In this document: positions 7,220-20,062 of the stretch, one piece after another
Numbering within the stretch: the stretch's first letter is position 1
Layout of the letters: every line of letters starts with the position of its first letter
Source of the DNA: a virus
Lineage: Duplodnaviria; Heunggongvirae; Uroviricota; Caudoviricetes
Reading direction: 5' to 3' (one strand)
Length of the DNA: 20,062 nt
IMG/VR virus record: IMGVR_UViG_2778261543_000001
Program-made: the position numbers and the translations under genes
The notes under the pieces: generated by a model
Seen by the model: the letters and a program-made list of their open reading frames with translations, nothing else
Databases searched by the model: none
Told to the model about the DNA's origin: nothing

Positions 7220-7825
7220 ATGAGCGTAATGATTTTTCAGGCTGGCGGAGATACCAAAATATGGGGACGCAAGCTGAAAACGAAAACCGTTGATCCTGAT
7301 GATGTAGCTGTGCACTTAGCAAATGGCTGGTATAAGCACCCTGACGATGTTCCTGATGATCCTCTTGTTGGTGATCAAATTGGGAGTGTTGGCGGAGGTG
7401 AAACTTCCCCAGTTGATATGGGCGAAGTGTCCGACGGTTATCACACTTTTAACGAGCTTTACGCTCACCGAGTGCGCCTCTTCTCATCGCTGATGCATGC
7501 TTACGCTGAGCTTTCGTGGTGGTCTCGCAAACACAGTGACGGTGAAGAGTGGGATGGCTGGATCATTGCTGGTATCACCACTCCAGAAGGCGAAATCACT
7601 TATCACCTACCTGTTGAAGAAATCGAGTTCCTTCCTGAAGGTACTGAGCTTGAGTTCGGGAAAGAGTGGGATGGTCATGAAGCAAATGATGTTCTTGGAC
7701 GACTCCTGAGTTTGCGTCCGGCTATTGCAGAGCCAGAGCCAGAGCCAGAGCCAGAAGAAAAACAGCGTAAAAAGCCTAGTCGAAAACCTAAGGCGGCAGC
7801 AGATGAACCTGACAACGAAGGGTGA
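7220..7825 (+). CDS. Acidic hypothetical protein (201 aa) with an (EP)4 repeat and a Lys/Arg-rich tail, inserted between coat and gp4
   Basis: ATG at 7220 with a GGAGA site 5 nt upstream. The ORF track begins this frame at 7040 inside the coat gene, but 7220 is the first start after the coat terminator. Protein is Asp/Glu-rich and ends ...[22 protein letters not shown].... Its 3' end overlaps the gp4 start by 23 nt. P22 has no gene here as far as I recall. Confidence 0.6.
7729..7752. repeat. Perfect tandem hexanucleotide repeat (AGAGCC)x4
   Basis: Read directly at 7729-7752. Encodes EPEPEPEP in the 7220 frame. The WLWLWLWL and GSGSGSGS stretches in antisense and alternate-frame ORFs are artefacts of this repeat. 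Confidence 0.95.
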
Positions 7826-11027: not shown

Positions 11028-11720
11028 ATGTTATATGCATTTAAGCTGGGCAGAAAACTGCGCGGCGAGGAACCTTATTGCCCTGAAAAAGGCGGGAAAG
11101 GTGGCAGCTCTGATAAAAGCGCAAAGTATGCAGCAGAAGCTCAGAAGTATGCCGCAGACCTGCAAAATCAGCAGTGGCAGACGATCATGAAAAACCTTGC
11201 TCCGTTCACGCCGCTTGCGGAGCAGTATGTTAACCAGCTTCAGAATCTTTCCAGTTTAGAAGGTCAGGGGCAGGCACTTAATCAGTATTACAATTCTCAG
11301 CAGTATAAAGACCTTGCAGGTCAGGCGCGTTACCAGAGTCTTGCTGCTGCGGAGGCGACGGGTGGACTTGGTTCGACAGCCACAAGCAATCAACTGGCTA
11401 CGATCGCGCCGACACTCGGTCAGTCTTGGTTATCAAACCAGATGAGCAATTACAACAATCTGGCAAACGTTGGGCTTGGTGCGCTGCAAGGTCAGGCAAA
11501 CGCCGGGCAGACGTACGCCAACAACATGAGCAGCATTGCACAGCAAAGCGCAGCTCTTGCCGCTGCTAATGCCAACAAACCATCAAGTCTTCAGACAGCA
11601 ATTAGTGGCGGAACGTCTGGTGCGATTGCCGGTGCAGGTCTTGCCAGCCTTTTGGGGACATCAACACCTTGGGGCGCTGGCATTGGTGCTGGTATCGGAT
11701 TGCTTGGCTCGTTGTTTTAA
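11028..11720 (+). CDS. 7: Ejection (internal virion) protein, P22 gp7 type (230 aa)
   Basis: 230 aa (P22 gp7 about 229 aa) at the expected position. Gln/Ala/Asn-rich with a Gly-rich hydrophobic C-terminus (GAIAGAGLASLLG...GIGAGIGLLGSLF), consistent with a membrane-inserting ejection protein. Confidence 0.7.
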   Translation: MLYAFKLGRKLRGEEPYCPEKGGKGGSSDKSAKYAAEAQKYAADLQNQQWQTIMKNLAPFTPLAEQYVNQLQNLSSLEGQGQALNQYYNSQQYKDLAGQARYQSLAAAEATGGLGSTATSNQLATIAPTLGQSWLSNQMSNYNNLANVGLGALQGQANAGQTYANNMSSIAQQSAALAAANANKPSSLQTAISGGTSGAIAGAGLASLLGTSTPWGAGIGAGIGLLGSLF

Positions 11721-14977: not shown

Positions 14978-15026
14978 ATAAATAATTAACTAAGCACATA
15001 ACTACTGACAGATAACCAACGCAACG

Positions 15027-15050
15027 ACCCAGCTTCGGCTGGTTTTTTTA
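15027..15050 (+). terminator. Rho-independent terminator between gp16 and the tailspike gene
   Basis: CCAGC-TTCG-GCTGG hairpin (15029-15042) followed by a run of seven T, about 50 nt after the gp16 stop. Confidence 0.6.
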
Positions 15051-15107
15051 TGCCCAAAATTCACCGTAGCCACGCTGCGGCGTTTCCTTGTATCTGGAGC
15101 AAATTAA

Positions 15108-17057
15108 ATGACAGACATTACAGCCAATGTTGTAATTGGGATGCCTTCGCAACTCTTCACTATGGCTCGTTCTTTTAAAGCCGTAGCCAATGGCAAAATT
15201 TATATCGGTAAAATTGACACTGACCCGGTAAATCCTGAAAACCAGATTCCGGTTTATATAGAGAACGAAGACGGTTCTCACGTTCCTGTTTCGCAACCAA
15301 TTATCATTAACGCTGCTGGTTATCCTGTATATAACGGGCAGATTGCCAAGTTCGTAACTGTGCAAGGCCATTCTATGGCTGTTTATGATGCATACGGTGC
15401 TCAGCAGTTTTATTTTCCGAATGTTCTGAAGTACGATCCTGACAGATTGCGACAGGATTTAGCGCTTCCAACAGGCGCTGAGCTTGTAGGCGTGCAACCA
15501 CAAGGAAATCTTTCGCAAGTCATTCAGTTTGTATCTCCAGAGCAGTTTGGCGCCATCGGAGATGGTACGGTTCATCCATTATCTGAGCGTTATGCGACTC
15601 TTGCAGCAGCGCAGGCTGTATACCCATTCGTAACATCTCTGACCCAGACAATTGACTGGGCAGCGTGTCAGGCGGCTGAGAACTATGCGCGTGGTAAAAC
15701 AGCGGTAAGATGCCCTTTCTACGCCAAGTATCATCTTGGCAACAATTATCTTGAGCTAAGCGAGAAAAGTAAATGGTATGGCAATGACAATCCCACTATA
15801 GATCGCCCATGCACCACTATCATACGAGAGGGAAATGCTGGCAGCTTCGGAAGAAATGCAATCGTCCGCGTTATGAGCTCTAGCGAAGCAGGAAGTTCGG
15901 ATGAATTTGTTCGCGGAGTCGTTTTCAAAGGTTTCTATTTATCTAGAAACCGCCCTCGTCGATTTAACAGCAAGTATGAAGGGTCAATAGGCTTTCATGT
16001 TAACTTTGCAATTAGAGCAGATATCGACGTGGCAATAAGCGGCTGTGAATATGGCCTTTTTGGCTATGGGTGCTGGGGACTGGTTGGTAGGGTTCGCGTG
16101 GATTCATGCCATAAATCTATTTGGCTGGATCCTGACACCGCAACTCCAGAGCATACCAACCCAGGCGGTTCAATAACGGCTCTTGATTTACGCGTAGAGG
16201 TGGATGCATGCGTCTACGGACCAGTGCTTCGACATGTGCAATATAGTAGAATTTCTGGATGGGTCGAAGGAATGCTTATTGATTCCGCAGTATACCCAAT
16301 CTATGACTACACCAACGAAACAGCTATAGCTATTACGGCATATGGATGCGATGGTTTAGATATAGAAAATCTAGGAATTGAAGCCTGGCAGGGAGTGATG
16401 GTTTACGCCAATTCCAGTACAGTATCCACTGGGATAAAATGGAATCAAGGAGCATTACTAACAAATACAACCGGTAAACACGGGCCATACCAGGCCATGG
16501 CAGCACTTACTGGCGCAACAGAATTGTTCACTTTACCATCGACTAACAACTCATATTTCTATGCAAAAAGTGGAGGCCTACTTAAGTTAAGAAATATGAC
16601 AGGAGATATGTCGACCGCTTCTTTCGCAAATACATTCCTTGTTACGGTTGATGCTGACTCTCGATTCTTAATGGAGAATACTGGCATTTACTTTGGAAGT
16701 AGTCGACTAATTGCCCCCGGCAATTGGGAGAATATTGAATTTATCAACGATAGATTCATGCAGAACTATATGGTGCCAGCTGGGTACTCATATGAAGGAC
16801 GCGGTATTTGTACTGCTAGCGCATGGTCAAACAAGACGATAAATGCCGGCGATGGTAGGGTTACACTTGATGCCCCTACTGGGTGGAAAATTATTGATTT
16901 TGTGGCCTACGTAATAACAAGCACCATATCACAAACTAGAAGCTACTCTCCTGTAGGAGTTGTATCCACATCAGATACGCGGATTATTCTGCAGACTGGT
17001 GTGGACACTACAGGTTTTTCTGTAACCTACAAACTAAGACTAAAGGTAATAAAGTAG
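15108..17057 (+). CDS. 9: Tailspike protein (649 aa): P22 gp9-like N-terminal head-binding domain fused to an unrecognised receptor-binding domain
   Basis: The first ~110 aa ([11 protein letters not shown]...[36 protein letters not shown]...[12 protein letters not shown]) match the recalled P22 gp9 head-binding domain. The rest has no resemblance to the P22 endorhamnosidase domain, though its Gly/Asn/Ser/Thr-rich repetitive composition would suit a beta-helix fold. TGGAG site upstream. Confidence 0.9.
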
Positions 17058-17061
17058 AGTG

Positions 17062-17086
17062 AAAGCCCCTTACGGGGCTTTTTTAT
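17062..17086. terminator. Terminator hairpin between the convergent tailspike and gtrC-like genes
   Basis: AAAGCCCC-TTAC-GGGGCTTT hairpin (17062-17081) with a T-run to 17086, 5 nt after the tailspike stop and overlapping the stop of the - strand gene. The T-tract follows only on the + strand, so termination of the minus-strand gtr transcript is less certain. Confidence 0.6.
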
Positions 17087-18603
17087 ATGCCTGTTTTTAT
17101 TCTGTGGTTGTAAACCATTATTATCATGCCATTGTAACTTAGAACTTCATCAGGACTGCCAATAGTAGCCTCGACTCCTTTCCTACATAAATCTATGTCT
17201 GCGCACTGATCTCCAGTATTGCCCTTCCTTAAAGCTATGAACTGTCGTTCAGGTTTTGATTCTACAAATTCATTTGTGTGCCAAAACTTCATTGTTTGAA
17301 CGCGGGCATCCTTGAAGTTGATAACCCCTGTTTTTTTATGAAAGTAAACAGGGGTTATATGTATGTCTCCGCCAGACAGCCAATTCACGCCCATAGACAT
17401 CCCCCAAAAACTACCATATCCGTAAGTAAGATCATGATGCTTAAGGAAGTCTATATATGAATTGACAGGGTTATCGTTAAGCTTGTAGCGAATATTCATT
17501 AATGAGTAGCCATAAATGCACGTAGCAAAACTTAACAGCAAAGGAATTACTAATAATATAGCTCGTTTAGAAGATGCTGCTACTGACAATAGCACGATCA
17601 CCATTGGGGCAATATTAAGATAAAATCTTTGATGGGGAGTTTGATCACCTATTATTGAAGATGAGTATATTCCTGCTATAGACATGATTGAAAATATTGC
17701 AATGTAGCGAGCCGCACCGCCTCGCTTTATGCATATGAACACGGCATATAAGCATGTAATAGACCATGTAAAAAATATTGCATACCTGAAATACTCGTTG
17801 CCTATATTCGTTATTGGCAACATCTTGGCTGTGATATCAACAGCAAGCCTGGCATTATCAAGCATAACATCAAAAGGTGCCAAGTGGAAAGAGTGAACAG
17901 GAAGACCTATAATCTTTTGAATTACATTTGAGAAAGCCAATGCAAAAAACACAAAGTATATAATGAAATTTCTTTTTGTGGTTTTCTCAAAAACGATGAT
18001 AGCACACTCAGTAATTATCATTGGTAGGAAAAAAGCCGCCAGAAGCCATGGATCAGACGCGCTCGCTAGCAGCGAAATCAAAGAGCATACAAACGGTATA
18101 AATATGTTTTTGCTTTTTAAGCTTAACACAAACAAAGAAAAAACTACGAACCCATACGCATTAGTAGAGTTATGCGAAAATGGGTGTGAGAAATAACCGT
18201 GTCTGTATAGGTCTGGAGAAACAAATGTTATGCATATTAAAGCAATTAAAGCTAGATAGTTACCTGAACATGACCTAACCATTTCTGTTACGCATGCTGT
18301 GATAACAAAAATAAATATTGCGCTTGATATCACTAATGGCAACAGACCATCATCACCGAGCAGTAAAAACAAAGCAAAGTTTACTGGATAAACTGTAAAA
18401 TACCAGTTATCAAATGTTGGTTGCCATTGAGTAAAAGAACTCCATCCACTGTCCAGGAATGCCCTCCAAACTATTGGGCTATTGGCGGCATCTGCATCCC
18501 CTGACCATAAGTAGCTGTGTCGCGATGTAAGATAAAGAGACACGCAAAAAGATGCGAGATATAAAAAACACCAAAAAGCTCTGCTATCAGATATCCTATT
18601 CAT
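17083..18603 (-). CDS. GtrC-like serotype-specific O-antigen glucosyltransferase (polytopic inner-membrane protein, 506 aa); specificity unknown
   Basis: Third gene of a gtrA-gtrB-gtrX arrangement, with its start overlapping the gtrB stop (ATGA). The protein is very hydrophobic with many predicted membrane spans and a ~130-aa hydrophilic C-terminal domain. AT-rich codon usage. I do not recognise it as a specific named Gtr type. Confidence 0.7.
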
Positions 18604-19523
18604 GATTTACTAACACCCTTTAATATATAACGAGGCCTATTTTTGGACTCAACATATATCCTGCCAATGTACTCACCAAGAACGCCAATGCCAATCAATT
18701 GAACCCCGCCAAGGAACAGAATAGAGACAAGCAGGGATGGATATCCACGCACAGCATTGCCGAAGGCCAGTGTGTCGATAATCATCCAAGCACCGTACAG
18801 AAACGCCACTCCAGCTACGAACAGGCCAATGTAAGTCCACATGCGCAACGGGAAAGTAGAGAAGCTTGTGATCCCCTCAAGTGCCAGGTTCCACAGTTTC
18901 CATCCATTAAATTTAGTACTGCCTGCCACTCGTTCTGCGCGTGCATACTCGACAACATCTGTGCGACCGCCAACCCAACTCAGCACACCTTTCATAAAAA
19001 GGTTGCGCTCTGGCATAAGCTTAATGTTTTCGACAACTTCACGGCTCATTAACCGGAAATCGCCAACGTTTTCTTCTATCTTTGGGTTGCTGATTTTGTT
19101 ATGAAGCTTATAGAACCACTCAGCAGATTTACGTTTTAGTCGGCTGTCAGTTGAGCGATCAGAGCGCTTAGCAAGAACCATATCCGCGCCGGCCTGCCAC
19201 TTCTCAATAAGATGAGGGATGACTTCAATCGGGTCCTGCAGGTCAACGTCAATTGGAATTACAGCCTCTCCGGTTGCATGTTCTAACCCTGCAAACAATG
19301 CTGGTTCTTTACCAAAGTTGCGTGTAAATGACAGTGGAACAACCAGCGGGTCTGAAACAGCCAGAGCATTAATAATTGACTCCGTAGCGTCTTTACTTCC
19401 GTCATTTATGAATACAATTTCCACTTCATATGGCTTCAACTCTTCGAATTCACGTACCGTTTTATAGAAAATTGGTATCGCTTCTTCTTCATTGAGGACA
19501 GGAACAACCAGAGATATCTTCAT
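18600..19523 (-). CDS. gtrB: Bactoprenol glucosyltransferase GtrB (GT2 family, 307 aa)
   Basis: N-terminal GT2 fold signature ([14 protein letters not shown]...INDGSKD...) with a DxD-type motif (PIDVDLQDP) and two C-terminal hydrophobic helices, as in GtrB. Flanked by gtrA and the gtrC-like gene with ATGA overlaps. Confidence 0.9.
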
Positions 19524-19882
19524 TTCGCATTCCTAAAGACAATGAGCTTTGAATAGACGAAACCGCACACCAGGCTGATGGCGGAGAAAGTGATAAGGGT
19601 GACCATTGGAGGAAGTGCACATCTATCAGCAGCCCATCCAATAGTTGCACTCAGTGTTCCCATGAACCCGACATATAACATGTAGCGCATCGTTGTAGTT
19701 GATGCTTTGAATGTGAATTTTGCATTCGCGAAGAAGCTAAAACTCACAGCCACAACAAAACCTGCGAAGTTTGCCAGAGCCTGATTGGTATGCGCGGCAT
19801 AGATACATACACCAAAAACCACCCAGTGTATAAGTGTGTTCAGCACGCCAATCGAGGTGTACTTTGCAAATAGCTTTAACAT
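19520..19882 (-). CDS. gtrA: GtrA, small membrane protein (flippase for undecaprenyl-phosphate glucose), 120 aa
   Basis: 120 aa with four hydrophobic segments, first gene of the operon, typical GtrA size and position. Confidence 0.85.
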
Positions 19883-19920
19883 TTCTTCTATCAGCTAATA
19901 ATCAAAGGCATGAAGTCTAT

Positions 19921-20062
19921 TGGATTTGCCCCTATATTTCCAGACACCTGTTATCACTTAACCCATTACTGGCTTGCTGCCGTAGATATTCCCGTGGCGA
20001 GCGATAACCCAGTGCACTATGCGGATGCCATTCGTTATAATGCTCGAACGCCTCTGCAAGGT
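19921..20062 (-). mobile_element. IS2 insertion sequence, right terminal inverted repeat plus 3' end of the transposase gene; truncated by the window edge
   Basis: 19921-19961 (TGGATTTGCCCCTATATTTCCAGACACCTGTTATCACTTAA) matches the IS2 right inverted repeat as I recall it, with one mismatch. The adjoining minus-strand reading frame ends in a typical IS2 transposase C-terminus. Confidence 0.8.
19932..20062 (-). CDS. insD: IS2 transposase (orfB/InsD) C-terminal fragment; 5' part lies outside the window
   Basis: Minus-strand translation from the window edge reads ...[42 protein letters not shown], with the stop at 19932-19934. This is the conserved IS3-family integrase-fold C-terminus and matches the recalled IS2 InsD tail. 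Confidence 0.75.

Follow-up and report, generated by a model that had tools for sequence, protein, structure and literature searches.

A gtrABC lysogenic-conversion module with a GtrI-family third gene, a facing tailspike and an IS2 junction in a P22-like Escherichia coli prophage

We analyzed a stretch of 20 062 nucleotides of viral DNA (Caudoviricetes; IMG/VR record IMGVR_UViG_2778261543_000001), further called the window, which is contig NLNW01000079.1 of the E. coli assembly GCA_002229875.1; all positions are those of the window unless another record is named. Judging from its sequence, the region next to the tailspike gene belongs to a P22-like E. coli prophage and is a gtrABC lysogenic-conversion module, with its coding sequence intact. 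The operon is of the known gtrABC type; what is new here is the rare GtrI-like subclade of its third gene in E. coli and the unusual junction with an insertion sequence, IS2. We consider it probable that the parts belong together as an intact P22-like conversion module, with a GtrI-family GtrC glucosylating the O-antigen, a paired tailspike and expression from an IS2-hybrid promoter.

The gtr operon and the family of its third gene

In this operon GtrA comes first, a GT2 glycosyltransferase, GtrB, second and a co-oriented, tightly packed, variable membrane glycosyltransferase third; at both gene boundaries the start of the downstream gene overlaps the stop of the upstream one by 4 bp. A preliminary description, made from the DNA letters alone, had proposed a gtrA-gtrB-gtrC O-antigen glucosylation operon convergent with the tailspike, with GtrA and GtrB as the conserved pair; the three open reading frames (ORFs) lie exactly where it had placed them, and the database matches agree. 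GtrA matched the Pfam family PF04138 (E-value 2e-13; 51 bits, with a cut-off of 26) and, over its full length, PHROG 2224 'GtrA-like O-antigen conversion' (6e-69); GtrB matched PF00535 (1e-30, 107 bits) as well as PHROG 841/34335 'GtrB'. Sequence identity of GtrA is 95% to EC2 (E. coli prophage) and to HF4s (Lederbergvirus) and 88% to the Shigella flexneri phage SfI; identity of GtrB is 95% to EC2 and HF4s and 92% to SfI.

All three ORFs are intact; a search for the frameshifts and premature stops that would mark a decayed operon found none in gtrA-gtrB-gtrC. The ratio of nonsynonymous to synonymous divergence (dN/dS) of gtrC in comparison with relatives, 0.11–0.17, indicates purifying selection; for gtrB the ratio is 0.05–0.07. 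As had been noticed earlier, the third gene is AT-rich (37.8% GC, with 45% in gtrAB and 49.8% in the rest of the phage), its product is hydrophobic, and it is the variable member of the set: GtrC proteins of EC2 and HF4s are unrelated in sequence to the window GtrC, with no significant BLASTP match.

General collections said little about GtrC. None of the Pfam and NCBIfam models matched it, in PHROGs the only match was weak, partial and to a family without known function, and no relative was detected by sequence in the PDB; its identity was therefore drawn from tblastn, homology searches in large databases and fold comparison. Among 50 697 phage records searched with tblastn, the sole full-length relative was SfI GtrI (39.8% identity over 488 of 506 aa; blastp E-value 1e-126). 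The earlier opinion that the third gene is not recognizable as a named type thus has to be revised; on the other hand, the comparison with a characterized Gtr type, suggested at the same time, gave no high identity. A search of 5.8 billion proteins found 63 members of the family, about 490–530 aa long except for one partial sequence; among them is P0021, which stands for 273 member sequences and has 99.8% identity to SfI GtrI. There are 22 invariant columns in the alignment of 62 sequences, with D38, S42, W46, D65, W67, H144, D184, W186, R326 and R434 among the invariant residues, and all 22 are common to the window GtrC and SfI GtrI. The two proteins also have equal length (506 aa) and common motif blocks, including PERQFIA.

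The AlphaFold2 (AF2) model of GtrC, built from the family alignment (predicted local distance difference test, pLDDT, 93.2; predicted template modeling score, pTM, 0.91), consists of a multi-helix membrane domain at the N-terminus and a soluble alpha/beta domain at the C-terminus (about residues 379–506), an arrangement seen in GT-C enzymes such as ArnT, PglB/STT3, AftD and Emb. All 16 Foldseek matches in the PDB at E ≤ 0.001 were GT-C enzymes (STT3, PglB, ArnT); the fold matches have probability 1.0 and TM-scores of 0.45–0.55 normalized to the query, at a sequence identity of only 10–15%. The invariant D38 and D65 are located between the first helix (8–28) and the next membrane helices; they may correspond to the conserved acidic residues in the first extracytoplasmic loop of GT-C enzymes and are putative catalytic residues. 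Taken together, homology to GtrI, the shared invariant residues and the GT-C fold matches in the model identify GtrC as a GtrI-family GT-C enzyme. SfI GtrI produces the type I antigen by alpha-1,4 glucosylation of N-acetylglucosamine. Since identity to GtrI is just 40%, with 60% of the residues differing, acceptor and linkage may differ too; the acceptor sugar and linkage of the window enzyme cannot be inferred from those of GtrI.

In the accepted model of Gtr action, GtrB makes undecaprenyl-phosphate glucose (Und-P-Glc), GtrA flips it and the type-specific enzyme glucosylates the O-antigen in the periplasm (PMC3259042). By homology to the Shigella system, the window GtrB would use UDP-glucose to make Und-P-Glc on the cytoplasmic side of the membrane, GtrA would move it to the periplasmic side, and GtrC would place the glucose onto one defined position of the O-antigen repeat, with a change of serotype. 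Glucosylation would probably lower recognition of the O-antigen by the phage's own beta-helix tailspike; we infer from the precedent of P22 and of Shigella phages that the operon blocks superinfection.

One could argue that GtrC modifies another glycan (enterobacterial common antigen, lipopolysaccharide core or capsule) or that it transfers some other sugar instead of glucose, as the GT-C fold is common to enzymes with very different acceptors and the identity to GtrI is no higher than 40%. We find this very improbable. GtrC occupies the canonical third slot behind gtrA and a gtrB whose product has 92% identity to the Und-P-glucose synthase of Shigella; it aligns with GtrI over its full length and keeps all the invariant residues; moreover, its constant neighbor is a beta-helix tailspike, with the O-antigen-degrading tailspikes of Sf6 and HK620 among the nearest structures.

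A DNA match covering gtrC at ≥65–70% identity was absent from 5426 complete E. coli genomes. The same cassette was found in two further draft E. coli assemblies, L037 (GCA_003290525.1; identities: GtrC 96%, GtrB 97%, GtrA 95%, tailspike 98%) and L038 (GCA_052268225.1; GtrC 96%, GtrB 97%, GtrA 95%, tailspike 90%), further called siblings. After these, the closest GtrC proteins show 87% (Hafnia alvei), 85% and 80% identity, and the relatives at 58–64% include those of Yersinia kristensenii and Obesumbacterium proteus. A fragment of a related gene was seen in Escherichia phage N7 (MH717096.1, 18703–19362): it is GtrI-like, covers the C-terminal part only (47% identical to residues 287–506) and adjoins the N7 tailspike; there is also a match between N7 and the window directly upstream of gtrA, and the N7 gtr locus looks like a decayed one.

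The tailspike and its linkage to gtrC

The remainder of the window is a P22-like virion module, with homologues of coat, gp4, gp10, gp26, gp7, gp20 and gp16. P22, epsilon34 and HF4s have the same layout as the window, a tailspike and then convergent gtrC-gtrB-gtrA, followed there by attP/int; the P22/HF4s type also has the conserved GtrA and GtrB and a head-binding adaptor in the tailspike. In SfI the order gtrA-gtrB-gtrI, with genes overlapping or abutting, is like that in the window; however, SfI is myovirus-like, with tail fibers and no tailspike by gtrI, whereas the chassis of the window is P22-like with a convergent tailspike.

The tailspike is of P22 type, and its N-terminal adaptor (residues 1–113) is the only part assigned to Pfam; a sequence search of the PDB matched this adaptor to the Sf6 and P22 tailspikes in their N-terminal domains, and it is 96% identical to EC2. 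The rest, the receptor-binding domain, is modeled as a right-handed beta-helix (pLDDT 93.4), with the tailspikes LKA1 gp49, phi297 gp61, Sf6 and HK620 as the nearest PDB folds. Its first part, a neck of residues 114–192, has PDB matches in the LKA1 gp49 and phi297 tailspikes, at their N-terminal cap, and is 67–75% identical to Hafnia-type spikes bearing other adaptors; this neck may serve as a recombination anchor for receptor-domain swaps.

The receptor-binding domain had been described as new, a view that we rejected on account of its homologues. The domain belongs to a widespread beta-helix family: it is 98% and 91% identical to the domains in two other E. coli strains, 61–73% to those of Hafnia- and Obesumbacterium-type prophages, 56% to that of phage ZCEC5 and 48% to those of Proteus phages. 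The tailspike/O-serogroup paper found in the literature does not cover this family or ZCEC5, and the O-antigen cluster of the host lies outside the contig.

Comparison with EC2 outlined a mosaic. DNA of the window is ~95% identical to EC2 in gtrAB (18643–19920) and in tailspike codons 1–192 (15064–15683), while the tailspike bodies have 34% protein identity; the stretch between the EC2-like flanks had no near match in the 5426 complete E. coli genomes. As the flanks are EC2-like and the middle differs, the exchanged unit would be the tailspike body together with gtrC, about 15684–18642. A Hafnia alvei prophage aligns continuously, at 78%, from the 3' end of the tailspike through gtrC into gtrAB. 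On this sequence evidence, the tailspike body plus gtrC is a unit set between typical E. coli P22-like phage sequences.

The pairing of tailspike and gtrC recurs on other chassis, in Hafnia alvei and in further prophage and viral contigs. We counted linkage in 57 fetched loci carrying a GtrC homologue. A homologous receptor domain adjoined gtrC in all 17 loci with GtrC at least 58% identical, and in none of the 40 loci with GtrC ≤49% identical. In the 17 linked loci, which make about seven distinct sequence groups, the receptor domain is convergent with gtrC at a distance of 30–72 bp (30–35 bp in Hafnia alvei and other loci with close GtrC, where the tailspike body is 40–61% identical). The adaptors vary among the linked loci, with at least three types present: Head_binding, Tail_spike_N (siphovirus-like tails) and a 757-aa form. 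Synonymous divergence (dS) from the sibling L037 is 0.07 for the tailspike, 0.11 for gtrC and 0.29 for gtrB; the lower values of the first two are consistent with a common history that is more recent for the tailspike body and gtrC than for gtrAB.

Other observations count against a fixed partnership. Receptor domains of the same family, 34–56% identical to the window's, pair convergently with other modifiers, namely a Glucos_trans_II GtrC (the partner of the 56%-identical domain), a YfdI_N GtrC and an Acyl_transf_3 acetyltransferase. Also, the locus with the closest GtrC (87%) has a receptor domain of 61% identity, while a locus with GtrC of 58% has one of 70%. Such non-exclusive pairing, with the best GtrC and receptor matches in different loci, suggests that the two genes recombined apart at times. 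The loci where a tailspike of the same family faces another modifier are L062, L064, L065/L066, L067/L068 and L001.

The preliminary description had suggested that tailspike and gtr operon were acquired together. Strict linkage (17/17 versus 0/40) and the mosaic boundaries speak for this, while the location of the best GtrC and receptor relatives in different loci, along with unrelated modifiers beside receptor domains of 34–56% identity, speaks against it in its simple form. Co-acquisition of the tailspike body and gtrC is thus plausible and partly supported, namely by linkage. In a wider comparison, 'tailspike facing O-antigen modifier' looks like a general architecture present on several phage chassis, whose partners change from time to time; that phage types swap gtr clusters had been reported before (PMC2629481).

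Adjacency could also reflect position only, the two genes hitch-hiking in a recombination-prone right end with no matching of receptor and modification. The same known swapping of gtr clusters between phage types (PMC2629481), the Glucos_trans_II, YfdI_N and Acyl_transf_3 partners of the receptor-domain family, and the lack of a monotonic relation between receptor-domain and GtrC identities would all be expected then, and we take this explanation as possible, though on balance improbable. The split of 17/17 versus 0/40 across at least three adaptor types and about seven groups is hard to obtain from position alone; besides, some O-antigen modifier follows every related tailspike examined, which argues for a functional pairing rule.

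The IS2 junction upstream of gtrA

The window ends in the right end of an IS2 element (IS3 family), a feature missing from the preliminary description. It has the same orientation as the gtr genes and is situated 38 bp upstream of the gtrA ATG. On the gtr strand its right inverted repeat (IRR) reads TTAAGTGATAACAGGTGTCTGGAAATATAGGGGCAAATCCA, identical at 40 of 41 positions to the published IS2 IRR (PMC3299598). The IS2 stretch, with the annotation IS3 family transposase, is present in 4364 of the 5426 E. coli genomes; at other insertion sites we saw the identical IRR end base and unrelated flanks. Matches beside ehaB and mchS3 were considered as further cases of an IS2-gtrA junction and rejected, as alignment showed the IS2 part alone in common.

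Uninterrupted relatives make it possible to see what the insertion has separated. In siblings L037 and L038, TTGGATG is followed by ATAGACTTC, and homology to the window stops exactly between the two, at 19920; in the siblings, EC2, SfI and HF4s the sequence upstream of gtrA runs TCGATCGATTGAGACTTGGATG and then ATAGACTTCATGCC, with window homology ending at the same boundary. An alignment of divergent gtr loci with variable flanks revealed a conserved element, TCGAT(C/T)-17-TGnTA(G/C/A)ACT, in gtr loci of E. coli, SfI, HF4s, Escherichia sp. E1V33 and Enterobacter (positions 7749–7800 in L001 and 2090–2152 in L002; it is also present upstream of gtrA in L037 and L038). In SfI this region, interrupted by IS2 in the window, reads TCGATC-17-TGATAGACT. 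We infer from the alignment that TGnTAnACT is the native extended -10 of the gtr promoter. IS2 sits between its TG and TAGACT; thus, the insertion would have removed the native -35 and TG along with all upstream sequence and kept the -10 hexamer.

The same comparison bears on phase variation. In each of four uninterrupted relatives the sole GATC in the ~160 bp preceding the gtrA ATG is at -58; no GATC is present within 180 bp upstream of gtrA in the window. A Dam site (GATC) at the -35 position was observed in E. coli, Shigella and one Enterobacter locus, unlike the Salmonella OxyR/Dam architecture. The gtr promoter of Salmonella P22 carries two GATC pairs in three OxyR half-sites and is subject to phase variation (PMC2909390). 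Phase variation of the Salmonella Dam/OxyR type was rejected for the window because the GATC-pair architecture is absent.

At the junction IRR is followed by a single A and then by TAGACT, a layout as in the IS2 junction promoter Pjunc. In the IS2 minicircle the junction consists of IRR, 1 bp and the left inverted repeat (IRL), which starts with TAGACT; an outward -35 is situated in the right end, the terminal TA of IRL makes the Pribnow box, and the 'more powerful' promoter strictly requires the 17-bp spacer to which the single junction base gives rise (PMC3299598, PMC3219604). In the window the outward -35 of the IS2 right end would likewise be placed 17 bp from a hexamer equal to the first six bases of IRL. 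There are two differences: the -10 is the native gtr TAGACT, not the IS2 left end, whose OrfA-binding part is absent; and the promoter precedes a serotype-conversion operon, not the transposase or a resistance gene. Fusion promoters made with the IS2 right end have activated ampC, acrEF and neoR (PMC9330008). Given the Pjunc-like architecture and the known IS2 fusion promoters, the operon is predicted to be transcribed, not silenced, most likely from the hybrid promoter or by IS2 read-through, and free of native control.

Several points weigh against this prediction. The contig ends 142 bp into IS2 and has its right end only; we reconstructed the Pjunc hexamers TGGAAA/TAGACT from the spacer rule and the sequences in the literature; the hybrid promoter could be blocked by transposase sitting on the right end of IS2; and a consensus promoter scan did not report this promoter (8/12 matches, below threshold). 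The same generic scan found no native promoter in EC2 either; because generic scans missed the promoters and an intergenic hairpin (see below), we used comparative alignment and direct folding.

The missing scan call could also be taken as a sign that the operon is intact but silent, a recently inactivated cryptic locus in which IS2 has cut off the native -35/TG and any activating sequence farther upstream. The insertion at -38 relative to the ATG takes away TCGATC and TG, both conserved elements, the hybrid -35 (TGGAAA) and -10 (TAGACT) match consensus at 4/6 positions each, and silencing of genes by insertion sequences is common. Still, silencing seems to us unlikely: the junction copies a promoter that was termed powerful and depends strictly on the 17-bp spacing (PMC3299598, PMC3219604), right-end fusions of IS2 are documented activators (PMC9330008), and the transposase genes point the same way as gtr, so that read-through is possible. 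Absence of disabling mutations in the three gtr genes is a weak point here, since a recent insertion would not yet show decay.

In a random site, TAGACT would fall at the exact offset about once in 4096 cases; its placement may be due to selection or to targeting of a sequence that resembles the left end. One could speculate that the IS2 transposase took the gtr TAGACT as a surrogate left end and attached the right end at a distance of one base from it, or that phage pressure selected the insertion, and that the operon became hard-wired, as a constitutive one, to a copy of the strongest IS2 promoter, with a new GtrI-like specificity matching the tailspike family; we regard this combination as quite doubtful. 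The idea of end mimicry, likened to figure-of-eight formation, would stem from the sequence coincidence and from the behavior of IS911. A literature search on IS2 target-site preference gave nothing usable.

Surroundings of the module and its meaning

The coordinates of the features are collected in Table 1. The 25 bp between the convergent tailspike and gtrC fold as a GC-rich hairpin on either strand; RNA folding of 17050–17095 gave -16.0 and -14.1 kcal/mol (z-scores -3.55 and -3.27). A simple terminator scan did not flag the hairpin at 17058–17082; judging from its sequence, it is likely the terminator of the tailspike gene and, more weakly, that of the gtr operon.

Table 1. Features of the conversion module and its flanks (positions in the window)
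Feature	Coordinates	Strand	Description
Tailspike	15108..17057	+	649 aa, P22-type, convergent with gtrC
Head-binding adaptor, residues 1–113	15108..15446	+	PF09008 Head_binding, E-value 5e-66
Receptor-binding domain, residues 114–649	15447..17057	+	right-handed beta-helix (AF2 model)
Tailspike neck, residues 114–192	15447–15683	+	99% identical to EC2; contains AAENYARG
Variable tailspike body, residues 193–649		+	travels with gtrC
Shared intergenic hairpin	17058..17082	both	AAAGCCCC-TTAC-GGGGCTTT, T-run on + strand
gtrC (type-specific third gene)	17083..18603	-	506 aa, GtrI-family GT-C fold membrane glycosyltransferase
gtrB	18600..19523	-	307 aa, GT2 bactoprenol glucosyltransferase (UDP-Glc to Und-P-Glc)
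gtrA	19520..19882	-	120 aa, small membrane protein, proposed Und-P-glucose flippase
Predicted hybrid promoter	19914..19942	-	-35 TGGAAA (19942..19937, in IRR), 17-nt spacer, -10 TAGACT (19919..19914)
IS2 (IS3 family) right end	19921..20062	-	orfB 3' end (stop 19934..19932) and 41-bp IRR (19961..19921)

On the upstream side of gtrA the siblings have an attP-like core (L037) or an integrase (L038); the window has IS2 and then the contig end. At the end of L037 (about 11040–11142, upstream of gtrA) the sequence GGTGCCGATAATAGGAGTCGAACCTACGACCTTCGCATTACGAAT matches the tRNA-like attP core annotated in SfI, which suggests that the L037 prophage integrated in the same tRNA gene as Shigella serotype-converting phages. 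On the other side of the module, only 130 bp (14978–15107) separate the gp16 homologue from the tailspike, and the P22 immI genes mnt, arc and ant are absent there; where other phages match this stretch, their annotation gives it as the end of ant. The sibling L037 has an Arc/Mnt-like gene between the gp16 homologue and the tailspike, and L038 is without it.

Side-chain modifications encoded by prophages escape genetic O-typing of E. coli, which is based on the O-antigen gene cluster. The GtrI-like subclade, rare in E. coli (three draft genomes and 0 of 5426 complete ones), probably defines an undescribed O-antigen variant common to Hafnia alvei and other hosts. The tailspike-gtrC pair would combine a receptor-degrading enzyme with a receptor-masking one and could be used to study how temperate phages protect their lysogens; the pairing may also help to predict phage host range from sequence. 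The IS2 junction, in turn, is a clean natural case in which an insertion sequence has put its own promoter architecture in place of a conversion operon's control region, a change that could make a regulated surface modification constitutive.

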